Source: an uncultured Alphaproteobacteria bacterium (lineage in GTDB: Bacteria; Pseudomonadota; Alphaproteobacteria; Rs-D84). From it: a stretch of DNA of 64,000 bases. Position 1 is the stretch's first letter. Every line of letters begins with the position of its first letter. Positions 2,283-15,734 of this stretch are shown in pieces. The translations under genes and the position numbers were made by a program. Location: the NCBI GenBank assembly GCA_934255455.1, contig CAKQNS010000002.1, positions 11,007-75,006 on the forward strand, given 5' to 3'. The notes below the pieces were generated by a model. It was not told the DNA's origin, did no database searches, and saw nothing but the letters and a program-made list of their open reading frames with translations.

Positions 2283-3341
2283 TTAACGACCGATATATTC
2301 CCAAACCAATGTTTGGGCACCACCCTCGGCAACTTTCAAGGTCAACGCATAATTACCAACCTTGGATAAATCATCGGTATTTTGTGCCAACTGTGTTGCC
2401 GAGATTTTACCCGCCGTGATAGCACTGTCGGCAATCTTTGCTGATGTGACATTTGCATCCGTAATCTTTGCGGTCGTCACGGCACTATCTGCCAATTTTT
2501 CAGTCGTGACATTTTTATCTGCAATCTTTGCGGTTGTGACATTTGCATCTGTAATCTTTGCTGTTGTCACGGCATTATCTGCCAGTTTTTCTGTTGTGAC
2601 ATTTTTATCTGCAATCTTTGCGGTCGTCACAGCATCGGCAGCCAATTTTGCAGCTGTCACATTTGCGTCTTTGATTTTTACTGTCGTCACAGCATCGGCA
2701 GCCAATTTTGCAGCTGTCACATTTGCGTCTTTGATTTTTACTGTTGTCACGGCATTATCTTCGATCATATCTGTTTTGATTTGACCAGTTATGATTTGAC
2801 CAGTGGCATTTGTGATAACGGCCAGGTTTTTATTTGCCTCCGTTTGGTTCTTATCAACCTTGCCATCAATCGAGTCTGCCAAATCTTTATTAACCGCATC
2901 AGCCGCATTTTTCGCAATTTCTTCGGCGACGGCAACGGTCGGGAACTTTACAGCCTTGTCGGTTGCATCTTTATTGTATGTTGTTTCTTTATTCGCAGAA
3001 TCTTCTTTGTCTTTTTTCAAACCATCAATTGCAGTTTTGTTTTCACCAATTGATGTTGTATGACCAGCAATTGCGTTTTTATTTGCTTCGATATCCTCTT
3101 TGATTGTTTTATCATCGTACGCAGTGCCCGTACCATCGATTGTGATTTTGCCATCAACAATTGTCACATCGATACCATTTGAACCGGCAAGATTTGCATC
3201 CGCCCCCCCAACTTTCAATGTGTCTTGTTTTGCCTTCAAACTCTCATCAACATACGTTGTTGCGGCGATATCTGCGCGGGCGGCACCGGCCGTCATAATT
3301 GCAATCATTGAAACTGCAAATATTCCCGATAATTTTTTCAT
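2283..3341 (-). CDS. Secreted repeat protein g2 of the tandem family (about 12 decapeptide repeats D-x-N/A-V-T-T-x-K-I/L-A)
   Basis: Start MKKLSGIF… at ATG 3341 with RBS AAGGAAAG. The first ~110 residues after the signal (…YVDESLKAKQDTLKVGGADANLAGSNGIDV…VKFPTVAVAEEIAKNAADAV) are nearly identical to g3. A 30-bp tandem repeat array encodes NAVTTVKIKDANVTAAKLAAD-type units. C-terminus GNYALTLKVAEGGAQTLVWEYIGR. Confidence 0.75.
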   Translation of the reverse strand: MKKLSGIFAVSMIAIMTAGAARADIAATTYVDESLKAKQDTLKVGGADANLAGSNGIDVTIVDGKITIDGTGTAYDDKTIKEDIEANKNAIAGHTTSIGENKTAIDGLKKDKEDSANKETTYNKDATDKAVKFPTVAVAEEIAKNAADAVNKDLADSIDGKVDKNQTEANKNLAVITNATGQIITGQIKTDMIEDNAVTTVKIKDANVTAAKLAADAVTTVKIKDANVTAAKLAADAVTTAKIADKNVTTEKLADNAVTTAKITDANVTTAKIADKNVTTEKLADSAVTTAKITDANVTSAKIADSAITAGKISATQLAQNTDDLSKVGNYALTLKVAEGGAQTLVWEYIGR

Positions 3342-3418
3342 TTTTCTTTCCTTTGCTTTCATTTATCAAAATTTATGCCATGGCACGCCAAACACGTACC
3401 ACGGCACTCGGTTATTTA

Positions 3419-4279
3419 TTATTCACCTGTAGCCGGGTTTTCATTCTCGGCGCGTTCAATAACTTCCCATGCGTATGCGGCGTTGTTATATGTCAAAACA
3501 CACTTGTTTGTCGGATTCTCACATTCGCCTGCTGGCTTTGGAATCGCTTCGTTAGCGGTTTTTTGTGCGGCATCCGCAGCGGACTTTGCTGTGGCGGCAT
3601 CCTCTACCCCCTTGTCTGCCTGGGTCTTGGCCTCTGTAATTTTTCCATCCAACGCAGTGTCGGCCGCAGTGTACGCATTTGTAATCGTGGTTGTTGCCGC
3701 GTCAATTTTATAATCAACCGAGCCCTCGGTGGTTTTATCGGCGTTCAATTTTGTAATTGCACTTGTATTTGTGCCAATGTTTGTTTCATTGGTGGAAACG
3801 CGCCCTTCCAATGTCGTTAAATCGGTTGAAACCGCATCAGCCGCATTTTTCGCAATTTCTTCGGCAACAGCAACGGTCGGGAACTTTACACCCTTGTCGG
3901 TTGCATCTTTATTGTATGTTGTTTCTTTATTCGCAGAATCTTCTTTGTCTTTTTTCAAACCATCAATTGCAGTTTTGTTTTCACCAATTGACGTTGTATG
4001 ACCAGCAATTGCGTTTTTATTTGCTTCGATATCCGCCTTGATTGTTTTATCATCGTACGCAGTGCCCGTACCATCGATTGTGATTTTGCCATCAACAATT
4101 TTCACATCGATACCATTTGAACCAGCAAGATTTGCATCCGCCCCCTCAACTTTCAATGTGTCTTGCTTTTTGCCGACCTCTTGGTCAACATATCCACGCG
4201 ATGCAACGGCGGCGTCGGCGCTGTTTGCGGCGACAATCCCCAACATTACGGTAAATATACCTGCGGTTAATTTTTTCAT
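3419..4279 (-). CDS. Secreted protein g3 of the tandem family
   Basis: Start MKKLTAGIF… with signal peptide. Same 5' upstream sequence (ttttttcatttttctttcctttc) as g2. Shared N-terminal domain with g2. C-terminus IPKPAGECENPTNKCVLTYNNAAYAWEVIE matches the C-terminal box of g4. Confidence 0.75.
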   Translation of the reverse strand: MKKLTAGIFTVMLGIVAANSADAAVASRGYVDQEVGKKQDTLKVEGADANLAGSNGIDVKIVDGKITIDGTGTAYDDKTIKADIEANKNAIAGHTTSIGENKTAIDGLKKDKEDSANKETTYNKDATDKGVKFPTVAVAEEIAKNAADAVSTDLTTLEGRVSTNETNIGTNTSAITKLNADKTTEGSVDYKIDAATTTITNAYTAADTALDGKITEAKTQADKGVEDAATAKSAADAAQKTANEAIPKPAGECENPTNKCVLTYNNAAYAWEVIERAENENPATGE

Positions 4280-4318
4280 TTTTCTTTCCTTTCTTTTTTT
4301 ATTGTTTTTTTAATTTGT

Positions 4319-5515
4319 TTATTCCAACGGTTCTGTCACATCCATCCAGTATGGGTTGCCATCCTTATCAACCGACAACACGCAACGTCCGGATTCGGCC
4401 GTGCAATTAACGCCTGGTTTCGGTACCGCGTATGCGGTCACGGCCTTGACGGATGTGTATTTGGTTGTGGAATCTTTGTCGGCGGTCGAAATCGCATCAA
4501 CACGGTTGGTGGTCTTTTCAACGCCATTTAATTCCGTCGTGATGTCGTTTTTGGTTGCCAAATCAGAAATTTTTGTTGTGGACATTTCATATTGCCCGGT
4601 TGCATTCACGGTTGCGATGCCGCCCGCGGTTTCGGCGGTCACACCGGTGACCTTGTCTGCCTTGGCCGCGACGGTGGTCGCCACGCCATCAATACGGGTG
4701 CCCAATGCGGTGTCGGCCTCGGTCAATGTGCTGACAGAATCGTCAACCAATGTATTCACCGCCTTGGCCGTTGGATATTGGTCGTCGGTCGAGGCCGCCG
4801 AAATTGTTGTCGTTTTGTTCGATACATCTTCCTTGCCCGCGACAGATGTTTTTAACGATGAAATATCGGTTTTATTCGTGTCAACCTGGGTCGATACGGT
4901 GCTCAACGCGGTTGCCGTGGCCAAATCGGTAATTTTGGTCGAAGAGGCTTCGTATTGGCCGCTTGCGTTCACGGTTGCGATGCCACCGGTGTTCGCCTCG
5001 GTCATACCAGAAACTTTATCAGCCTTGGCCGCCAATGCGTCGCCCATGTCGCCCGCGACAATTTGCGCAACTTTGTCTTCGGTAAATTTAACGATTGCAC
5101 CAACCGATGGATACAGTGTGCCCGACGCCTTGTTCTGGTCGGTAATTTCGGTTGCCTTGTTTGATGTATCTTCTTTGCCGGTCACGGCTTCTTGTAATGC
5201 GGCGACATTTGTTTCGGTCGTGCCAACACGCGTTGTCAAACCGTTCACCGTATTGTTGGTTGTTGTCAATGCCGCATTTGTTGCCAAATCGTCAATCTTG
5301 GTTGTTGAAACCTGGTATTGGCCATTTGCGTCAACCGTTGCGATGTTGCCGGCATTGTCGCCAACATTTGCAACCACGTTCGCCTTGGTGCCCGCCAAAT
5401 TATCAACATAGGCCTGGCTGGCAATTCGTTTTGCCGCCCCATCGGCCGCAGACGCCGCACCAACCGACATGATTGCCGCCATAAATCCAGAAAATGCGAT
5501 ATTATTTATTTTCAT
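4319..5515 (-). CDS. Secreted protein g4 of the tandem family
   Basis: Signal peptide MKINNIAFSGFMAAIMSVGAASA. ASQAYVDNLAGTK N-box. Repeated GIATVNASGQYE(A/M)S(S/T)TKI(T/S)DLAT units. C-terminus YAVPKPGVNCTAESGRCVLSVDKDGNPYWMDVTEP. RBS AAGGAAAAAA. Confidence 0.75.
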   Translation of the reverse strand: MKINNIAFSGFMAAIMSVGAASAADGAAKRIASQAYVDNLAGTKANVVANVGDNAGNIATVDANGQYQVSTTKIDDLATNAALTTTNNTVNGLTTRVGTTETNVAALQEAVTGKEDTSNKATEITDQNKASGTLYPSVGAIVKFTEDKVAQIVAGDMGDALAAKADKVSGMTEANTGGIATVNASGQYEASSTKITDLATATALSTVSTQVDTNKTDISSLKTSVAGKEDVSNKTTTISAASTDDQYPTAKAVNTLVDDSVSTLTEADTALGTRIDGVATTVAAKADKVTGVTAETAGGIATVNATGQYEMSTTKISDLATKNDITTELNGVEKTTNRVDAISTADKDSTTKYTSVKAVTAYAVPKPGVNCTAESGRCVLSVDKDGNPYWMDVTEPLE

Positions 5516-5560
5516 CTGTTTTTTCCTTGGTTATATCTTCGTTACTGTTTCCCGGTTTTA

Positions 5561-6973
5561 CTATGGTTCCACAATTACAATCTCGGACCACGCGCCACCA
5601 CCATTACCATCGGCCGCAAATATATAGTTGCCAGCCGTTTCGGGCGCCGTCATGCCACCAGTTGCCGAAATGGTATCGCCATCAATCGTGATGTTCGTGC
5701 CCGCGGTCAATTTATTTTGCTTGCCCGCCAACGCGGTGTTGATGTCGGTCTTGGTGTAATATTGGTCCGCATCAAATGTACCAGATTGGGTAATTTTCGC
5801 ATCAACCTCGGTCTTGGTATATGCGTCACCAATGCCATATCCCGCCAGGGTTGTTGCCTTGTCCGCCTTGGTCGCGATTGATGCAGTGTTTGCCTCTATC
5901 GCGGCGGTATTTGCATCTATGGCATTTTTATTTGCACTGATGTTTGTGGCATTCGCACCAATCAATGTACGCACCGCCGTGTCGTCATACGATTTCGCCG
6001 AAATGGTATCGCCATCAATCGTGATGTTCGTACCCGCGGTCAATTTATTTTGTTTGTCCGCCAATGCCGTGTTCGTTTCGGTCTTGGTATAATATTGTTC
6101 CGCATCAAATGTACCAGAATCACGGATTTTCGCATCAACTTCGGCCTTGGTATAAACATCCGTCTTGGCCGCATAGATTGCCGACAGTGCACTGATTGCA
6201 TCTGCAATCGCGGTGTTCATTTGCTCTGTTGTGGAATATGCACTTAAATCCGCCGGAGTACCGGGTTCACCCGCCGGCCCCTGGGGCCCAGTGATTTCCG
6301 CCTTGGAAATCAGAATTCGCCAATCAGCATCACCCTCGCCCGCATAGCGCCATAACAGGTCGTTGTCATTTGAACCAATTTCAACCTCGCGCCCATCCTG
6401 GCCGGCGATGCTGCCTATTTCGTCTTTTAACCCATCAACATCAACATAAATTTGATTTGTTGTATTATCAATTACAATAAAACCGTTCAGTGTCGGTTCC
6501 AGCGTATCTTGTTTGTCACCCAATTGGCTTGATAAACTATCGTCCGCTTGGTGCAGTTCCTCGGTATCGCGCTGTAATTGGTCAATTTGACGACGCAAAT
6601 CCGCCACAACCGACGGATCAGTTGTACCACCTTCGCCCGGTTCCGGACGCACAGAACTGCCCCCGCTGACGGATGTGGTGCCCCCCAAATATTTTCCAAT
6701 AGATAAACGCGGTGTTGTTGCCACACGACCCGTTGTTGTTGCGGCCACCGGCTTTGCCGTCGCCGTCGTGCCGGTTTTACCAGCCGTTGGTGTCACACGC
6801 AATGACCCCGCACGCGCCGCACCGGTCGATGTTGCATTTGATGCGGCCGACGCACTGGAGTATGTTCCAGCCCCACCCAGCGAACGCACCGACGATGCCG
6901 CGTCAGCCCCGGAAACCGTGGCGCACACCGCACACACAATCGCAAGTATCGATATTTTGGTGTTATTTTTCAT
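5561..6973 (-). CDS. Secreted protein g5 of the tandem family; collagen-like triplet and phage-tail-fibre-like repeats
   Basis: Signal peptide MKNNTKISILAIVCAVCATVSGADA. KQDTL box as in g2/g3. …WRILISKAEITGPQGPAGEPGTP… Two ~55-aa direct repeats YTK(A/T)EVDAKI…GTFDA(E/D)QYYTKT…LA(D/G)KQNKLTAGTNITIDGDTISA. C-terminus …GGGAWSEIVIVEP. Confidence 0.75.
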   Translation of the reverse strand: MKNNTKISILAIVCAVCATVSGADAASSVRSLGGAGTYSSASAASNATSTGAARAGSLRVTPTAGKTGTTATAKPVAATTTGRVATTPRLSIGKYLGGTTSVSGGSSVRPEPGEGGTTDPSVVADLRRQIDQLQRDTEELHQADDSLSSQLGDKQDTLEPTLNGFIVIDNTTNQIYVDVDGLKDEIGSIAGQDGREVEIGSNDNDLLWRYAGEGDADWRILISKAEITGPQGPAGEPGTPADLSAYSTTEQMNTAIADAISALSAIYAAKTDVYTKAEVDAKIRDSGTFDAEQYYTKTETNTALADKQNKLTAGTNITIDGDTISAKSYDDTAVRTLIGANATNISANKNAIDANTAAIEANTASIATKADKATTLAGYGIGDAYTKTEVDAKITQSGTFDADQYYTKTDINTALAGKQNKLTAGTNITIDGDTISATGGMTAPETAGNYIFAADGNGGGAWSEIVIVEP

Positions 6974-7035
6974 GACTCTCTCTGCTTACATTGATTCTAT
7001 CATATTTTGCGAATCGGGGTCAATACTTTTTCTCA

Positions 7036-7767
7036 TTAAAATTCGTATCTGACGCCAACCGAAATAGAATTATCCCAAATCATGTCGATTTTGTTTTCAA
7101 AATTGCCGTATGTCGGGGTGTTATCCTTGATACCAATGCTGTGTTTTGTGCCCGTCATACCCGCCAAACGATAACGCAAATCTAATATCAAATTGTCGTC
7201 CAATTTGGTTGAATATCCAACTGCGATGTTCGCCATTGGCGCAATTGATGTTTTGCTGCGACTGGTTCCATCGGAATATATATTTGCAAATTTAACATCC
7301 AATGTTGTCATTGGCGCGGCAATACCCAAACCACCACCAACATACACGCCGTTCAAGAAATCATAGTATCCGTTGGCCGAAATATATGGGATTTGCAGGC
7401 TGAATTCTGAACCTGCATCTTTGTCTTCGAAATGACCGATGTATCCGGCTTCGACCTCGCCCCGCCAGAAATAGCCAAAATGGCGACCGGCGGCCAAACT
7501 GCCCCCGAATACGGGTTCAAACGAATAACTGTCACTGTTGGACGACAAATCGGCACCCGCCGCCAACAAATCAGACGAGTATTTATTCTTCCAATTCAGG
7601 AAACTAATCTCGGCACGAGCGGTCATATACCAGCCTGTTTTTGCCTTGTCCGTGTAATCGTATGTCACATTATAACCGCCACGACGATCCGGTTGAATAT
7701 AGCTGGGCGCCGCGGTGGCCGCGGTTGTCATACCAACCAGCACAAACAACGAAACTAATTTTTTCAT
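7036..7767 (-). CDS. Outer-membrane beta-barrel protein (porin/OmpA-like barrel family)
   Basis: Signal peptide MKKLVSLFVLVGMTTAATAA. Alternating amphipathic beta-strand pattern. C-terminal …SVGVRYEF ends in the aromatic residue typical of OMP barrels. Strong RBS AAGGAG before ATG 7767. Confidence 0.65.
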   Translation of the reverse strand: MKKLVSLFVLVGMTTAATAAPSYIQPDRRGGYNVTYDYTDKAKTGWYMTARAEISFLNWKNKYSSDLLAAGADLSSNSDSYSFEPVFGGSLAAGRHFGYFWRGEVEAGYIGHFEDKDAGSEFSLQIPYISANGYYDFLNGVYVGGGLGIAAPMTTLDVKFANIYSDGTSRSKTSIAPMANIAVGYSTKLDDNLILDLRYRLAGMTGTKHSIGIKDNTPTYGNFENKIDMIWDNSISVGVRYEF

Positions 7768-7845
7768 GTTAAAATTCTCCTTCCAATATCTTGGGCAAAG
7801 TATATCACATTTTTGCCCTGTTTCAAAACCATAAAAAAACAAATA

Positions 7846-7874
7846 TTGACATTTTTGCAAATAATTTGTTTAAT
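7846..7874 (+). promoter_or_regulatory. Candidate sigma70-type promoter for pal (TTGACA-N17-TTTAAT)
   Basis: ttgacatttttgcaaataatttgtttaat lies 40-70 bp upstream of the pal ATG. Confidence 0.3.
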
Positions 7875-7915
7875 ATATATCAGGTGGGAATTATTCAACC
7901 GAAAAGGGAAAGATC

Positions 7916-8317
7916 ATGAAGAAAATTTTTGCTTGCATTACATTATTGGGTTTGGCGGCATGTTGTGGCGCCCCGAAAGACATTAATAATGACCAGGTTT
8001 ATTTCGCGTTTGATTCTGCAAAGATTTCGGATCAGGCACGCGACAGTCTGGATGCCCAGGCAAAATATATGAAATTACATCCCGACCAAAATGTCCGACT
8101 GGAGGGTCATTGTGACGAACGCGGTTCCACCGAATATAATTTGGCATTGGGCGCATTGCGCGCGGGCAACGCCGCACATGTTTTAATTCGTGACGGAATT
8201 GAACCAGAACGTATTAAAACTATTTCATACGGCAAAGAAAACCCGCAATACCCCGGCAGTGGCGAAGAAATATGGGCCAAAAACAGAAATGTCACAACCA
8301 AGGTTGTGGAAAAATAA
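7916..8317 (+). CDS. pal: Peptidoglycan-associated lipoprotein Pal (OmpA-family C-terminal domain)
   Basis: Lipobox LAACCG. …VYFAFDSAKISDQARDSLDAQAKYMKLHPDQNVRLEGHCDERGSTEYNLALGALRAGNAA…ISYGKENP is the canonical Pal/OmpA peptidoglycan-binding motif set. RBS AAGGGAAAG. Confidence 0.9.
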   Translation: MKKIFACITLLGLAACCGAPKDINNDQVYFAFDSAKISDQARDSLDAQAKYMKLHPDQNVRLEGHCDERGSTEYNLALGALRAGNAAHVLIRDGIEPERIKTISYGKENPQYPGSGEEIWAKNRNVTTKVVEK

Positions 8318-8319
8318 CA

Positions 8320-8343
8320 AACGGGGCATCGCCCCGTTTTTTC
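8320..8343 (+). terminator. Intrinsic terminator of pal (ggggcatcgcccc plus T-run)
   Basis: Perfect GC hairpin followed by TTTTTT, 3 bp after the pal stop. Confidence 0.7.
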
Positions 8344-8441
8344 AAAGTTCAAATACCAAAGTGCAAAGTTCAAATAATGTGTGCGCCGGATGACGCACTG
8401 CTTTATTCATTTGAACTTTGAACTCTGAACTTTGAACTTTT
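8343..8441. repeat. ~98-bp palindromic repeat element: AAAGTTCAAA-type arms around central hairpin gtgcgccggatgacgcac
   Basis: Imperfect inverted arms (aaagttcaaataccaaagtgcaaagttcaaataa … ttattcatttgaactttgaactctgaactttgaacttt). About 95% identical to the copy at 11341-11437. Confidence 0.8.
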
Positions 8442-8480
8442 CTTTTGACCCCGATTTTTTTTTTTACTAATATCCAAATC

Positions 8481-9272
8481 ATGGAAGAAAAGACAGCGAT
8501 TTCATTTGCAAATGTGGCCGCCGCGTACGACGGTGGGCGCGATGTTTTAACAGATGTTTCATTTAACATCAGTGCGGGGGCATTCTATTTCCTATCGGGC
8601 GCGTCGGGCGCGGGTAAAACCACCCTATTACGACTGATATACCAATTACACCGACCATCACGCGGGCAAATTAAATTATTCGGTCAACCAACCGACGGAA
8701 TTTCGCGCGACGATATTGCGCGCCTGCGTCACAAAATGGCGATTGTATTCCAAGAATATTCTTTGCTGTCACATTTGACGGTGTTTGACAACATTGCATT
8801 ACCGTTGCGTGTGCGCGGCCTGCCCGATGATAAAATAAAAAAATTGGTGGCCAAGGTTCTGGAATGGGTTGGCCTGGCCAAATATGCCGATGCAAACCCA
8901 ATGGCGCTGTCGGGCGGTCAACAACAACGCGTATCGGTTGCGCGTGCGATTATTAGCCAACCGGCGATATTACTGGCCGACGAACCGACCGGAAATCTGG
9001 ACGACGAAAACGCATCGCGGTTGATGGAACTGTTTATACAAATGAACAAAATGTTCGGCACAACGATAATTTTGGCCACCCATAATCAAAAATTGATGGA
9101 CACCTATAAATTCCCGGTTATTCACGTGGAAAACCATCGGGTTGGCTTTATTGGTGGCACGAAAAAGGCCCCTGCCCCGGAATCTGATGTGAAAAAGGTA
9201 TGGAAGGGCCCCAAGCCACAAAACTATTTTTCAGAATTATCAAAACAATTTGACGATATTGGGAACGCGTAA
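8481..9272 (+). CDS. ftsE: Cell-division ABC transporter ATPase FtsE
   Basis: Walker A GASGAGKTT, ABC signature LSGGQQQRV, Walker B LLADEPTGNLD. Stop overlaps the ftsX start. The ORF track begins at TTG 8445; ATG 8481 is the likely start. Confidence 0.85.
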   Translation: MEEKTAISFANVAAAYDGGRDVLTDVSFNISAGAFYFLSGASGAGKTTLLRLIYQLHRPSRGQIKLFGQPTDGISRDDIARLRHKMAIVFQEYSLLSHLTVFDNIALPLRVRGLPDDKIKKLVAKVLEWVGLAKYADANPMALSGGQQQRVSVARAIISQPAILLADEPTGNLDDENASRLMELFIQMNKMFGTTIILATHNQKLMDTYKFPVIHVENHRVGFIGGTKKAPAPESDVKKVWKGPKPQNYFSELSKQFDDIGNA

Positions 9273-10111
9273 TGAAAACACCTGTTGTATTTTCGCTGGT
9301 ACGCCAGCAATCTGTATTTATGACGGCAATTATGTCATTGCTGACATTTTTGGCGGTGCTGTCGCTGGGAATTGGATTGGCCATTGGTACCGGCGTTATG
9401 CGTTGGAATACCCAGTGGGATTTATTTGCAACGGTTCAAATAACCGATACAAAAAATGCCGCATCGGTAAAGCAAATTATTACCGATAATCACGACAAAA
9501 TGGCATCTGTTGATGAAATCACAACAACCGAAATGCAAAATTTAATGCGGCCGTGGCTGTCATCGGGTGGTGATACACTGAAAAAATACCTGCCACAAAT
9601 GTATGAAATAAAATTCAAATCTAAATCCGATTTGCAATATGTTGAACAGCAAATTTCAAATCGCGCGCGTTTTCTGACACATGCCAACGCGTTAAAGACA
9701 TCGACAAACGCGGGATGGTATTTGATTCTGATTTCAACACTGGTTTTGACAATGGTGTTGGGCACGATTGGCGTATGCATATCGTACATCGCACGCAATA
9801 CCGCAATGCTGCATAAACGCGAATTAGAAATATTAAACCAAATTGGCGCATCCGATTCGTTTGTTGCCCGCCAAATGCAAATCATTGTGGCAAAAATATC
9901 TGCAACATCGGGCCTGGTTGGGTTTATGGCGGCGGCATTGATTTTAATGATGGTGCTGGGCGCCGCACGCACCGCACGGGTTGGACTGATGGCGATGCTG
10001 GGGTTATCTGGGTGGGGATGGTTTGCATTGGCGTTGTTGCCGGTGGTAATTATGTTTTTCGCAATGGAAATTTCACGCCGTACGACATTAAAGATTCTTG
10101 AAAATAATTGA
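9272..10111 (+). CDS. ftsX: Cell-division permease FtsX
   Basis: 279 aa with four TM segments in FtsX topology (N-terminal TM, periplasmic loop, three C-terminal TM). Translationally coupled to ftsE. Confidence 0.75.
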   Translation: MKTPVVFSLVRQQSVFMTAIMSLLTFLAVLSLGIGLAIGTGVMRWNTQWDLFATVQITDTKNAASVKQIITDNHDKMASVDEITTTEMQNLMRPWLSSGGDTLKKYLPQMYEIKFKSKSDLQYVEQQISNRARFLTHANALKTSTNAGWYLILISTLVLTMVLGTIGVCISYIARNTAMLHKRELEILNQIGASDSFVARQMQIIVAKISATSGLVGFMAAALILMMVLGAARTARVGLMAMLGLSGWGWFALALLPVVIMFFAMEISRRTTLKILENN

Positions 10112-10620
10112 TGAAAATTTTAACACCATCTTTGCTGTTATTTGGATTATTCATATTGGGGGGCATAGTGTTCAAATCTATGGCCCCGACCCAATGTGGG
10201 CCAATACAATCAAACGACAGTATATTTGTTCTGACCGGGGATATGCGGCGTATACCGTTTGCAATGCGCATTGGGCGCCAATATCCCGACACGCAAATAT
10301 ACATCATTGGCGTTGGTGCCCCCACATCATACGAAATGACAAACCGCATCAATGTTGAATCGCAATCGAAATCAACATATCAAAATGCCGTGGCCATACG
10401 CGACATTGTTGCCCGCGAAAACCTGGCCCGCATTGTCGTCATAACGACCGAGGATCATATCAATCGTGCCATATATTTATTGCACGACGAATTACCCAAC
10501 ACGGACATAGTTGCATGCCCTGCTCGACTGTACGGTATGCCACCACCACAACGATTACAACGTTGGATAACCGAGTATATAAAATACATCGTCACAATGA
10601 CCGGAATCAAGGAAAGTTAA
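10108..10620 (+). CDS. DUF218 (YdcF/ElyC/SanA-family) envelope protein
   Basis: N-terminal TM, …IFVLTGDMRRI…STYQNAVAIRDI…IVVITTEDHINRA… typical of DUF218. Start overlaps the ftsX stop (ATGA). Confidence 0.6.
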   Translation: MMKILTPSLLLFGLFILGGIVFKSMAPTQCGPIQSNDSIFVLTGDMRRIPFAMRIGRQYPDTQIYIIGVGAPTSYEMTNRINVESQSKSTYQNAVAIRDIVARENLARIVVITTEDHINRAIYLLHDELPNTDIVACPARLYGMPPPQRLQRWITEYIKYIVTMTGIKES

Positions 10621-10630
10621 AGGAACAAAT

Positions 10631-11341
10631 ATGATGATAAAGACCGTGATATTTAAATTAGTATTGGCAATATATTATGTCGTGTGGTCACCAATTATTT
10701 TGATTGGATTGGTGTCCAAACCGCTGAACGATTTTCTGGTGCGGACATGTGCCGGTGGCGTTTTAGTGCTGGCCCGATTGATTGTTGGCATAAAATATGA
10801 AATACACTGTCCCCCAACCGAAGAAAACGGCATTCCATGCACGCCAAATGATAACGCGCGTCTGGACGGCAAGGCCATAATTGCCGCCAAACACATGTCT
10901 ATATTGGAAATAGCCATTTTGGCGACGCATATTCCAAATTCTTTTTTCATTGTAAAACGTGAAATTATATGGTTCCCAATTTACGGGTGGGCGTTTTGGC
11001 GTATGGGCCTGCAACCGGTGAACCGTGCGCGTGGCGCGACAAATATGCACAAATTGGCAACCAATGTGGCCGAAAAAATTATGGATGGCAAAATTCTGAT
11101 TATTTTCCCCGAGGGCACGCGTGTAAAACCAGGCCAACATATTTCATTGAAACGCGGCCTGTTGTACCTGGCCCATGAATTAAAATTACCCATTTTGCCG
11201 GTGGGAACCGATACAGGACTGTATTGGCCCAAACATGGCCGTATGCGTGGCGGCACCGCCAATGTTTGGTTTGAACCAATGCTGCCTTGCAACGCGTCAC
11301 TGGATGAAATCAGCGCAGCAATCAACCGCCACAGCGCATAA
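10631..11341 (+). CDS. plsC: 1-acyl-sn-glycerol-3-phosphate acyltransferase (LPLAT family)
   Basis: N-terminal TM; acyltransferase motifs (…AAKHMSILE… block I variant, FPEGTR block III, PILPVG block IV). Confidence 0.7.
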   Translation: MMIKTVIFKLVLAIYYVVWSPIILIGLVSKPLNDFLVRTCAGGVLVLARLIVGIKYEIHCPPTEENGIPCTPNDNARLDGKAIIAAKHMSILEIAILATHIPNSFFIVKREIIWFPIYGWAFWRMGLQPVNRARGATNMHKLATNVAEKIMDGKILIIFPEGTRVKPGQHISLKRGLLYLAHELKLPILPVGTDTGLYWPKHGRMRGGTANVWFEPMLPCNASLDEISAAINRHSA

Positions 11342-13447: not shown

Positions 13448-13672
13448 ATGCCAAATGTTATGCAGCAATTGTTCATAATGAACATAGAATCATTGCTGCG
13501 CGAATATGCCGCATACCGCGCGTTTAATAAATCAGATTGCGTTATAAATATGCGAATTCCACGCCCTATTCTGGACCGAATTAAACAGCTGGCGGACGAA
13601 CAGCATGTGCCGTATCAATCACTGATTTCGTCTGTACTGTTTTCACTGGCAAATATCGAAGATAAAAAATAA
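13448..13672 (+). CDS. CopG/RHH-type BrnA-like antitoxin-family small DNA-binding protein (orphan)
   Basis: 74 aa. …INMRIPRPILDRIKQLADEQHVPYQSLISSVLFSLAN matches the COG3514/BrnA pattern I.LRLP…L…IK.LA….VPYQSL. No BrnT-like partner ORF on either side. Confidence 0.5.
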   Translation: MPNVMQQLFIMNIESLLREYAAYRAFNKSDCVINMRIPRPILDRIKQLADEQHVPYQSLISSVLFSLANIEDKK

Positions 13673-13680
13673 ATAGTAAA

Positions 13681-13720
13681 ACAAAAAACAGGTGCCAAAT
13701 TTGGCACCTGTTTTTAATCC
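13681..13720. terminator. Bidirectional intrinsic terminator (caggtgccaaatttggcacctg flanked by A- and T-runs)
   Basis: Perfect 9-bp stem between the convergent genes at 13448-13672 (+) and 13733-14083 (-). Confidence 0.7.
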
Positions 13721-13732
13721 AACAAATGGCAA

Positions 13733-14083
13733 TTACCAATTCAAAATAACATCTGAACAACCAATTGTTCCCATACCACTTTCACTCAAGAAGAAAGACA
13801 AAACCATACCTATACCAAACAGCATCACAAAGCCAACCAACATACCGGTACCCTTGTCTTTCAAATCGTCTTTTTTAACCTCGCCTTTCGAGATATAACC
13901 CCACGCCCAACCGGCGATAACAAATGCCGCACCAACGAACGCCAACGTGCGCAATGTTTCAAACACAGCCTTCATACTGAGAATCAATTCGCACAACCCA
14001 TTGCCCCCGGGCGCCGCATGTGCCGACATCGTTACAAAAATTCCAATCAGTGCAAAATTTGCCTTGTTCAACAATTTTTTCAT
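13733..14083 (-). CDS. VirB2/TrbC-family type IV secretion pilin-like protein
   Basis: 116 aa from ATG 14083 (RBS AAGGAAAAGGGG). Cleavable signal MKKLLNKANFALIGIFVTMSAHA, then two hydrophobic helices separated by a short charged loop (…LAFVGAAFVIAGWAWGYISKG-EVKKDDLKDKGTG-MLVGFVMLFGIGMVLSFFL…), the VirB2/TrbC pilin architecture. C-terminus …VILNW. Confidence 0.5.
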   Translation of the reverse strand: MKKLLNKANFALIGIFVTMSAHAAPGGNGLCELILSMKAVFETLRTLAFVGAAFVIAGWAWGYISKGEVKKDDLKDKGTGMLVGFVMLFGIGMVLSFFLSESGMGTIGCSDVILNW

Positions 14084-14160
14084 AAAAAACCCCTTTTCCT
14101 TTTGGGGTAATTTTATCATAAATTCTGTCCCCATTCAAATACATTTTACAAACAATTACG

Positions 14161-14246
14161 CGCACCGTTTGGTGCGCGTAATATCTGTTATCTATGTTCT
14201 GTTGTCTATTCTCTAAAAAAAAATGCGCCGACGGCGCATTTTTTAT
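14161..14246 (-). terminator. CTCTAAAAA-hairpin terminator module (copy c): two hairpins (gcgcaccgtttggtgcgc; gcgccgacggcgc) plus T-run at the 3' end of the lipoprotein gene
   Basis: Same tatctgttatctatgttct…ctctaaaaa…gcgccgNNggcgc…tttttt layout as copies at 1701 and 11841. Confidence 0.5.
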
Positions 14247-14629
14247 TATTGTGCAACGATGACATAACGGCGTTTCAGCACAGGTTGACCACATGTCGCG
14301 CAACCACACGATGGGTTTGCAACCTGAACAGGTTGGGCAACCGTGACTTCGCGTGCCGCTGGGACCAAAATGCGGCGATCGTGACGCGGTTCCTGGCCCA
14401 GGTTATCGCGTTCATACAAATCTGCGCAACGGGTATTGCGATAAACGATTTTCTTGCTGTTGTCCATATCGGAAATTTCACGATTGAAACGATGACCTTC
14501 TTCGCCGATATAATATACGCAATCTTCGCCTTCTTGGGAATATTTCACGCCACCCTTGTAATAATCATAACTGCCAGCGCAGCCAACCAATGCCGTTAAA
14601 GCAAAAACAGAAACCAAAGTTTTTTTCAT
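14246..14629 (-). CDS. Hypothetical lipoprotein
   Basis: MKKTLVSVFALTALVGC lipobox. Cys-containing C-terminal region (CGCATCGQPV). No recognisable domain. Confidence 0.5.
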   Translation of the reverse strand: MKKTLVSVFALTALVGCAGSYDYYKGGVKYSQEGEDCVYYIGEEGHRFNREISDMDNSKKIVYRNTRCADLYERDNLGQEPRHDRRILVPAAREVTVAQPVQVANPSCGCATCGQPVLKRRYVIVAQ

Positions 14630-14789: not shown

Positions 14790-15734
14790 ATGAAATATTC
14801 TGAATTTGGTTTGGTAAACACCCGCGCAACATTTGCCGACGCAATTCGTCGCCACTATGCGGTGCCGGCATTTAATTTCTATAATATGGAAACATTGCAG
14901 GCCATTTTGTCCGCCGCACGCGACGCGCACAGCCCGGTTATTCTGGCCGTGTCTGAATCCGCGCTGAAATACATGGGCGGCGATATGCTGATGGGAATGA
15001 TACGCGGCGCGAACATTCGCGACAACGAACGCATAACATTGCACCTGGACCACGGGGCCAGTTTTGACGCATGTAAAACGGCACTGGAACTGGGATTTTC
15101 ATCCGTTATGATTGACGCCAGCAAATTGCCATTTGACGGAAACATGGAACTGTCGCGTCGCGTTGCCGAATTGGCACACAAATACGACGCATCGGTCGAA
15201 GCGGAATTGGGCACCATATCCGGCATCGAAGACGAAAATACTTTTTCCGACCATTCCAGTTATACCGACCCCAACGATGTAATAAAATTTGTGAACGCAA
15301 CCGGAATTGATTCATTGGCCATCGCCATCGGAACCAGCCACGGCGCATATAAACGCAAAAACGAAAATGAAAAACTGCGCCTGGATATATTGGATGAAAT
15401 CGCCAAACAATTACCGGAATTTCCACTGGTATTGCACGGTGCATCCAGCATTCCGCAACACTTTGTCAAAACCATAAATGAATTTGGTGGCGCACTGCCC
15501 GGTGCACTGGGCATTGACACACAACAATTACGCGCGGCGACCGAAATGAACATTTGCAAAATAAATGTCGACAGCGATTCCCGTCTGGCATTTACCGCGG
15601 GCGTCCGTGCGACGCTGGGCCAACACCCCGAAATGTTTAACCCGCGCGATTTCCTGAAATCCGCCCGCCAGAATATCTATGACAACTGCATAGATGAAAT
15701 CAAAAACATCATGGGTTCGGATAATAAGTTGTAA
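14790..15734 (+). CDS. fba: Class II fructose-bisphosphate aldolase
   Basis: …AVPAFNFYNMETLQAILSAA…PVILAVSESA…LHLDHGASF…SVMIDAS…GTSHGAYK…LVLHGASSIP… conserved class II FBA Zn-binding and active-site blocks. ATG 14790 with AAAGGAAA RBS. Confidence 0.9.
   Translation: MKYSEFGLVNTRATFADAIRRHYAVPAFNFYNMETLQAILSAARDAHSPVILAVSESALKYMGGDMLMGMIRGANIRDNERITLHLDHGASFDACKTALELGFSSVMIDASKLPFDGNMELSRRVAELAHKYDASVEAELGTISGIEDENTFSDHSSYTDPNDVIKFVNATGIDSLAIAIGTSHGAYKRKNENEKLRLDILDEIAKQLPEFPLVLHGASSIPQHFVKTINEFGGALPGALGIDTQQLRAATEMNICKINVDSDSRLAFTAGVRATLGQHPEMFNPRDFLKSARQNIYDNCIDEIKNIMGSDNKL

Follow-up and report, generated by a model that had tools for sequence, protein, structure and literature searches.

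A VirB2/TrbC-like pre-pilin gene conserved with a lipoprotein gene in gut Alphaproteobacteria of the order Rs-D84

The stretch of DNA considered here, hereafter the window, comprises 64,000 nucleotides from an uncultured alphaproteobacterium of the order Rs-D84 (GenBank assembly GCA_934255455.1, contig CAKQNS010000002.1, positions 11,007 to 75,006 of the forward strand). On its minus strand, at positions 13733..14083 with the stop codon included, an open reading frame encodes a protein of 116 amino acids that begins MKKLLNK, ends VILNW and resembles the precursors of VirB2/TrbC pilins. VirB2/TrbC proteins serve type IV secretion systems (T4SSs) as their major pilin and channel subunits. The full translation is MKKLLNKANFALIGIFVTMSAHA|APGGNGLCELILSMKAVFETLRTLAFVGAAFVIAGWAWGYISKGEVKKDDLKDKGTGMLVGFVMLFGIGMVLSFFLSESGMGTIGCSDVILNW, where the bar marks the predicted cleavage site. 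The gene sits within a housekeeping block in the order elongation factor P (EF-P), M16 peptidase, a fructose-bisphosphate (FBP) aldolase-family gene, a lipoprotein gene, the pilin-like gene, a CopG-like gene, TolB, SNase and an acyltransferase, and this block is syntenic over 80 genome loci that were gathered by scanning species-representative genomes, on contigs of up to 0.96 Mb. The open reading frame is a real gene and not a chance one, since it has at least 564 homologues (E ≤ 1e-3, identity 46-98%) in which the core formed by the first transmembrane helix (TM1), the following loop and the second helix (TM2) is nearly invariant.

The 116-residue product is favoured over a 133-residue alternative, which would begin at an in-frame upstream ATG at 14134, because MKK is the start of most homologues in the alignment, because a Shine-Dalgarno sequence (GGAAAAGGGG, minus strand) stands six bases before the ATG at 14083, and because a promoter-like site falls inside the extension. 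This site, found by motif scan as part of 14084..14138 on the minus strand, combines a -35 element TTGAAT at 14138 with a -10 element TAAAAT that ends at 14110 and carries a TG extension. It is the sole promoter-like site on this strand here and may be a sigma-70-like promoter belonging to the pilin-like gene itself; the scan returned five consensus matches where 4.3 would be expected from shuffles, that is, no excess. Directly after the stop codon lies an intrinsic terminator hairpin (13684..13715, minus strand) with a 14-bp stem followed by a T run, which is common to the pilin-like gene and the convergent CopG-like gene. Two further hairpins, both given on the minus strand, part the gene from the lipoprotein gene upstream: a terminator-like palindrome at 14218..14244, flanked by A and T runs on both sides, and, just upstream of the promoter-like site, a hairpin at 14155..14182 with a perfect 12-bp stem (ATTACGCGCACC-AAAC-GGTGCGCGTAAT). 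Given the terminator on one side and these two hairpins on the other, the pilin-like gene looks monocistronic. A repeat check found each of the three hairpins to be unique within the window, so that the neighbour described in an initial annotation of this DNA as a terminator-repeat copy is not one, and an Rfam scan of the intergenic hairpins returned no family above threshold.

The precursor begins with a Sec-type signal peptide (residues 1-23; 14015..14083, minus strand) for which a cleavage site is predicted at AHA|A, Ala23 being invariant and the AxA motif kept throughout the alignment. Its length is ordinary, and the 'long' signal of the initial annotation would amount to 40 residues only if translation began at 14134. 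The predicted mature protein of 93 residues (13736..14014, minus strand) consists of an N-terminal segment that contains Cys31, TM1 (residues 44-66), a charged loop (67-79), TM2 (80-100) and a C-terminal tail that contains Cys109 and the terminal Trp. The loop is rich in Lys and Asp (SKGEVKKDDLKDKG). An AlphaFold2 (AF2) model (predicted local distance difference test score, pLDDT, 63) folds the protein as a helical hairpin, with helices at 29-66, which includes TM1, and 71-103, which includes TM2. Alignment and structure prediction thus bear out the VirB2/TrbC-like architecture that had been proposed, namely a cleavable signal peptide, two hydrophobic helices, a short Lys/Asp loop and a Trp-ended tail. 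From the signal peptide and the two transmembrane helices, both termini of the mature protein would be periplasmic. Conservation is unevenly distributed over these parts: in an alignment of 121 sequences, the most frequent residue at a position accounts on average for a share of 0.95 in TM1, 0.88 in TM2 and 0.80 in the loop, as against 0.70 in the mature N-terminal segment and 0.59 in the C-terminal tail.

The two cysteines are placed symmetrically, Cys31 being the eighth residue from the mature N-terminus and Cys109 the eighth from the C-terminus. Both are present in 163 of the 168 full-length members that could be parsed and both are missing from two (P0292 and P0298). The three remaining members appear to have a single cysteine; two of these (P0249 and P0301) have a foreign C-terminus, and in the third (P0255) the placement of the motif by the automatic parser looks wrong. 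A distant member that the parser did not place (P0323) contains no cysteine at all. That the two residues are present or absent together, and that both lie on the periplasmic side of the helices, suggests a periplasmic disulfide between Cys31 and Cys109. A covalent link at this end of the molecule has a counterpart among known pilins, which include the TrbC pilin of IncP (RP4-type) systems. In this pilin and in the T-pilin of the Ti plasmid, head-to-tail cyclisation joins the two ends of the chain (cited in PMC2653234). The present protein would share with them an arrangement in which both periplasmic termini are brought together, the cysteines standing eight residues from the mature ends; it differs in that the proposed link is a disulfide and not a peptide bond, and no TraF-like cyclase was seen.

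Membership of the VirB2/TrbC family was assessed with the Pfam model PF04956 (TrbC/VirB2; profile length 98, gathering score 27.9 bits), the profile that the initial annotation had named as a check. The outcome is divided: the window protein itself gives no match, whereas PF04956 is the top match of three family consensus sequences, at 23.5-25.9 bits (E 1.2e-5 to 6.4e-5) and hence just below the cutoff. These consensus alignments are in register from the signal peptide through TM2, covering profile positions 11-90 of 98. Individual members match less consistently (9 of 29 close and 8 of 38 diverse sequences), and the best of their alignments, to profile positions 9-90 of 98, scores 24.8 bits. 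As controls, one reversed consensus was used together with nine segment-wise shuffles in which signal peptide, helices, loop and tail keep their original succession; only one of the ten scored at all, at 10.5 bits. Since the shuffles lose the match, composition and topology alone do not explain it.

How such scores should be read can be gauged from established VirB2 pilins. The VirB2 of Ti scores 64.9 bits against PF04956, TrwL of R388 scores 70.7 and TraM of R46 scores 28.8, while among VirB2s encoded within the operons of those plasmid T4SSs that have the VirB4 nearest to the Rs-D84 one, the Microvirga protein reaches 31.4 bits, that of Erythrobacter 28.9 and that of Sphingosinicella 22.6, and the Paracaedimonas protein gives no hit. 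Two VirB2s validated by their position therefore likewise miss the cutoff, and the family scores as a divergent true VirB2 does. When the family was compared with single VirB2 sequences by hhalign, the score was 21.5 with that of Ti and 27.7 with that of Microvirga (P = 8e-4, 70 columns), and reversed controls reached at most 15. This signal is not decisive, because known VirB2 subfamilies score no better among themselves (9-36, with reversed controls of 9-17). Matches of the window protein to DUF5357 and FraD in Pfam and NCBIfam scans were set aside as weak, spurious transmembrane matches. On the evidence of sequence comparison, homology to VirB2/TrbC is probable and not proven, and a practical lesson is that scanning a family consensus alongside topology-preserving shuffles can rescue pilins that score below threshold.

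Set beside the VirB2/TrbC proteins of P-type (MPF_T) T4SSs, such as Agrobacterium VirB2, R388 TrwL and pKM101/R46 TraM, the pilin-like protein has a similar precursor size (about 100-120 residues), a signal peptide cleavable after an Ala (position -1), and two hydrophobic helices with a charged loop that are predicted to form a helical hairpin. A Cys just before helix 1 occupies an equal aligned position in Ti VirB2. The PF04956 score of 24-26 bits is comparable with that of TraM (28.8) and with the range found for alphaproteobacterial plasmid VirB2s (none to 31). The differences are that this score remains under the Pfam gathering threshold, that the gene lies apart from virB3-virB4, and that a pair of cysteines is conserved near both termini. 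Unlike plasmid-borne VirB2s, moreover, the protein is encoded by a chromosomal, vertically inherited, single-copy gene.

The closest genomic companion of the pilin-like gene is the gene that precedes it. It encodes a Cys-rich lipoprotein of 127 residues (14246..14629, minus strand) with an LVGC lipobox and invariant C37, C68 and C113, C110 being kept in at least 90% of aligned homologues, of which there are 238. The initial annotation had called this lipoprotein unrelated. It is instead a conserved upstream partner, found in 77 of the 80 genome loci at a distance of about 500 bp upstream and in the same orientation, down to 46% pilin identity, and it keeps its place where inversions or insertions shift other neighbours. 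Searches of Pfam, NCBIfam and PDB with the lipoprotein, including a PDB profile search, gave no match, its AF2 model (pLDDT 54) is too poor for use, and the covariation of evolutionary rate between the two genes is not significant (rho 0.27, p = 0.07). VirB7 lipoproteins are partners of VirB2 and of the T-pilus (cited in PMC2653234), and VirB2 has been found in complexes with the VirB7 lipoprotein (PMC2653234). The Rs-D84 protein is like VirB7 in being a small lipoprotein genetically coupled to a pilin-like gene; no sequence or structural similarity between them has been demonstrated, and with its 127 residues it is roughly double the size of Ti VirB7.

Homologues of other T4SS components were sought with tblastn, using Ti VirB1-11 and VirD4 as queries, and with hidden Markov models (HMMs) built from seven reference sets (Ti, R388, R46, Erythrobacter, Microvirga, Sphingosinicella and Paracaedimonas). 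None of VirB1, VirB3-6, VirB8-11 or VirD4 was found in the window, so that the description of the gene as an orphan holds over these 64 kb. A look for T4SS genes elsewhere, as the initial annotation had advised, had a positive outcome in relatives: VirB3 and VirB4 were found in four related genomes, and VirB5, 6, 8-11 and D4 were not found in about 100 related loci. The module, unannotated in all four relatives, consists of VirB3, VirB4 and a secreted protein of about 205 residues (P205). In three of them it follows ychF-SufBD-L36 and is followed by varying genes (L091, 9708-13041; L099, 9708-13053; L101, 9708-13057). In the fourth, L064, it lies at 3285-6623. VirB3 of the module has 98 residues, and that of L064 matches PF05101 at 27.2 bits, above the cutoff; the L064 VirB4, of 808 residues, gives E = 2e-111 with TIGR00929. 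Homologues of VirB4 number more than 1,320; the top 120 clusters are at least 83% identical, and among the matches listed all those with a source name are labelled as a hypothetical protein from an alphaproteobacterial metagenome-assembled genome (MAG). P205 contains an invariant HEDKH motif (HExxH) and four invariant cysteines, has no match in profile searches of Pfam and PDB, and holds the place that a VirB5-type gene takes in the reference operons examined.

In L064, whose pilin-like protein is 55% identical to that of the window, the gene order is VirB3, VirB4, a secreted protein of 203 residues, rmlACDB and, 4 kb downstream, the pilin-like gene; no lipoprotein gene was detected beside the latter. 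The outer-membrane protein (OMP) gene that directly follows P205 in L091 comes after the pilin-like gene in L064, from which it follows that rmlACDB and the pilin-like gene lie inserted at the L064 VirB3-VirB4 locus. The intervening genes (6719-10973), lying between P205 and the OMP gene, are rmlA, C, D and B for dTDP-rhamnose, with the pilin-like gene. Beside VirB3-VirB4 in L091, L099 and L101, neither annotation nor inspection shows a pilin gene. Among plasmids, the Rs-D84 VirB4 has its closest relatives, 29-32% identical to it, in Erythrobacter, Microvirga, Sphingosinicella and Ca. Paracaedimonas (L095-L098); these plasmids carry complete VirB2-to-VirD4 operons, in which VirB4, VirB2 or VirB3 are themselves partly annotated as 'hypothetical protein'.

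Taken with the tests on PF04956, these observations lead us to read the protein as a divergent VirB2/TrbC-family pilin of a T4SS, to which we give a probability of about 60%. Several results weigh against this assignment. The window protein has no PF04956 match at E ≤ 10, and no member or consensus of the family reaches the gathering score, while a larger number of the close members (27 of 29) match DUF5357, with scores of about 16 bits. NCBIfam models gave no VirB2 match for the window protein or for 38 members; family profiles run against PDB sequences found no VirB2, only transmembrane noise of the TatC type; and fold searches returned generic helical hairpins and are uninformative. The Lys/Asp-rich loop, at 14 residues, is longer than that of Ti VirB2 and atypical. 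No established VirB2 family was recognised among the 83 clusters that a profile search of 1.84 billion representatives recovered, and tblastn of the protein against 72,556 plasmids found no VirB2, a search in which BLAST has no power for this family, given that Ti VirB2 and Microvirga VirB2 recover only their own close kin. The genomic setting adds to these points. VirB3 and VirB4 stand near the pilin-like gene in only one of the 80 genomes, and were seen in the four relatives named above and not within the window; VirB5, 6, 8, 9, 10, 11 and D4 were not found by HMMs in the window or in about 100 related loci; and in four distant homologues the pilin-like gene is an orphan too, again among housekeeping genes.

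Much of this would be expected if the protein had nothing to do with type IV secretion and were a small envelope protein specific to the lineage, a two-helix inner-membrane protein stapled by a disulfide and working with the lipoprotein in envelope maintenance. The two would then form a trans-envelope pair near TolB, Pal/OmpA and FtsEX, and the likeness to PF04956 would reflect convergence among proteins built from a signal peptide and a hairpin. It is the lipoprotein, and not any T4SS gene, that is the only near-universal genomic partner, the neighbours are envelope and housekeeping genes (for example TolB, OmpA-like, FtsE/X and acyltransferase), the family is narrow, and every sequence match to VirB2 falls under curated thresholds, with PDB and NCBIfam profile searches negative. 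Convergence of this kind sits poorly with the controls, however, as shuffles that keep the topology reach at most 10.5 bits on PF04956 where the consensus sequences reach 24-26, and all three of them have PF04956 as their one best-matching family, over the full length. The lineage also keeps a highly conserved VirB3-VirB4 pair with no pilin gene annotated or visible beside it, and in L064 the pilin-like gene sits at that very locus. We consider an envelope protein of this kind unlikely on balance, though it retains a far from negligible share of the probability.

A different account accepts the kinship with VirB2 and questions the machine. VirB2, VirB3 and VirB4 might be the sole survivors of a decayed T4SS in a shrinking genome, retained, in the absence of a trans-envelope channel, for a lesser or altered task, for example the assembly of a membrane or pilin-like surface structure. 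Such a relic would explain why the Rs-D84 sequences examined yielded VirB3, VirB4 and the VirB2-like gene alone, with no VirB5, 6, 8, 9, 10, 11 or D4 nearby, and would suit both the novel secreted HExxH protein that follows VirB4, where reference operons carry a VirB5-type gene, and genomes of 0.7-1.0 Mb that have undergone heavy gene loss (PMC12306168). Against it, the absence of the other components has been judged on only about 100 kb of distinct Rs-D84 context out of a genome of roughly 900 kb, and the identity of at least 83% over the top 120 VirB4 clusters, together with the near-invariant pilin core, points to strong purifying selection for a working machine. Decay to a remnant is an improbable reading.

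The homologues all stem from gut and rumen Alphaproteobacteria with genomes of 0.7-1 Mb (the order Rs-D84, Candidatus Enterousia and their relatives), and the recovery of only 83 clusters at 50% identity marks the family as narrow. Almost all of the 80 loci come from MAGs labelled uncultured Alphaproteobacteria, Rickettsiales or Candidatus Enterousia, obtained from human, chicken, horse, ruminant and termite guts, and the one named member of the protein's own cluster carries the NCBI label 'hypothetical protein'. Enterousia is a member of the uncultured order Rs-D84, whose members have genomes of about 0.75-1.0 Mb and heavy gene loss; these lack the tricarboxylic acid cycle, respiration and most biosynthesis, and dependence on partner organisms has been proposed (PMC12306168). 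The host is thus a gut-associated, Rs-D84/Enterousia-like alphaproteobacterium and not a known intracellular rickettsia. The GC content of the gene, at 43.6%, is close to the 45.8% of the window, so nothing suggests recent transfer. A family HMM gave a single significant match in the window and likewise a single one in every one of 89 related loci. In this order of gut Alphaproteobacteria with reduced genomes, the gene is a core gene that is inherited vertically and kept as a single copy.

This bears directly on the idea, raised in the initial annotation, that the gene belongs to a set of scattered virB2 paralogs whose role is surface or antigenic variation. The analogy is with the Anaplasmataceae, whose rvh systems include multiple divergent copies of virB2 in one genome, frequently arranged in tandem. 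Some support could be drawn from the rate of change, since in the closest species the pilin-like protein is 87% identical and seven neighbouring genes are 92-100% identical, making it the least conserved of the eight, and the substitutions sit in both terminal segments, which are predicted to be exposed. The copy number tells strongly the other way: a count of VirB2-like paralogs, which had also been proposed, comes to one in the window and one in each locus, at one fixed syntenic position across the order. There is no tandem array of pilin-like genes, and variants within a species are only 2-3 residues apart. A role as a variable paralog is therefore very improbable.

The closest precedent for the genome layout, by analogy, is instead the rvh 'archipelago' of Rickettsia. 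T4SSs of the rvh type have duplicated virB4, virB8 and virB9 genes and multiple virB6 genes, and lack virB5. In Rickettsia virB2 is an isolated 'conserved hypothetical' gene within a T4SS that is split into islets (Gillespie et al., 2009; PMC2653234). The pilin-like gene resembles that of RvhB2 in being alphaproteobacterial, chromosomal, set apart from other T4SS genes and annotated as 'conserved hypothetical', and the two systems are alike in that a reduced genome has its T4SS genes split between housekeeping loci. They differ in host, a gut Rs-D84 bacterium as opposed to intracellular Rickettsiales, and in what follows VirB3-VirB4, which in the four relatives is the novel HExxH protein and not copies of virB6; the remaining rvh genes were not found in the Rs-D84 sequences covered.

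If the protein is indeed a pilin, its path might run as follows. The 116-residue precursor would be exported by Sec and cleaved after Ala23, to leave a 93-residue product in the inner membrane as a helical hairpin with both ends in the periplasm and the Lys/Asp loop in the cytoplasm. A Cys31-Cys109 disulfide would close the open end of the hairpin and so take the role that head-to-tail cyclisation has in IncP TrbC and the T-pilin of Ti. The pilin would then be drawn out of the membrane and polymerised by the VirB4 ATPase, whose gene shares a separate housekeeping locus with that of VirB3 in four relatives, with the conserved helices packing inside and the fast-evolving N- and C-terminal segments exposed, and the Cys-rich lipoprotein could serve as the outer-membrane partner, by analogy with VirB7. 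Extended to the whole Rs-D84/Candidatus Enterousia order, this gives a tentative picture, and one that we hold to be rather doubtful, of a chromosomal, vertically inherited, T4SS-derived machine whose genes are scattered among housekeeping loci, in which a disulfide-stapled VirB2 and a Cys-rich lipoprotein are combined with a VirB3-VirB4 motor and an HExxH protein in an organelle that contacts partner cells. Such a machine might be minimal and operate without the canonical VirB6-B10 core.

The wider interest of the locus lies in the biology of these bacteria, which are widespread in human, livestock and insect guts and are suspected to live off partner cells. The machinery of that interaction is undescribed for Rs-D84/Enterousia, and type IV secretion goes unmentioned in a genomic description of the order (PMC12306168). 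The pilin-like, VirB3 and VirB4 genes are labelled only 'hypothetical' in the public records examined, and together the pilin-like gene and the VirB3-VirB4 module suggest that T4SS parts have been kept under strong selection, which would make them a candidate contact apparatus. For T4SS biology more generally, the paired cysteines suggest a second covalent way of closing the VirB2 hairpin, and the fixed pairing with the lipoprotein provides a testable relationship between a pilin and its partner.

Another pilus-related gene set occurs in the same lineage. In two Rs-D84 genomes VirB4 is followed, at about 6 kb downstream, by a cluster resembling type IV pilus or type II secretion systems (T2SSs), with PilO, PilP-like, GspE/PilB-type ATPase and PilC/T2SSF genes (L091, 17394-22433; L101, 17402-22424), and the one match of the VirB11 model is to a PilB/GspE-type ATPase. 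No pili are reported for the order in PMC12306168. The pilin-like protein lacks a type IV prepilin leader, and membership of this PilO-PilC system was ruled out for that reason.

Several neighbouring genes deserve brief mention. Convergent with the pilin-like gene, at 13448-13672 of the window on the plus strand, lies a gene for a CopG/BrnA antitoxin-like protein of 74 residues (PF12441, 37 bits). No toxin gene adjoins it. Its position is syntenic throughout the order, the median identity being 86%, and it may encode a free-standing ribbon-helix-helix regulator. On the other side, a gene of the class II FBP-aldolase family (PF01116; window 14790-15734, plus strand) adjoins the lipoprotein gene in nearly all relatives, in contrast to the statement that Rs-D84 genomes lack fructose-bisphosphate aldolase (PMC12306168). 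Further away, at 2283-6973 on the minus strand, are four tandem genes for secreted proteins of 359, 286, 398 and 470 residues, at least the first two of which have a common N-terminal motif, ...YVD..KQDTLKV.GADANLAGSNGIDV..., and which probably form a paralog family of surface proteins or adhesins.

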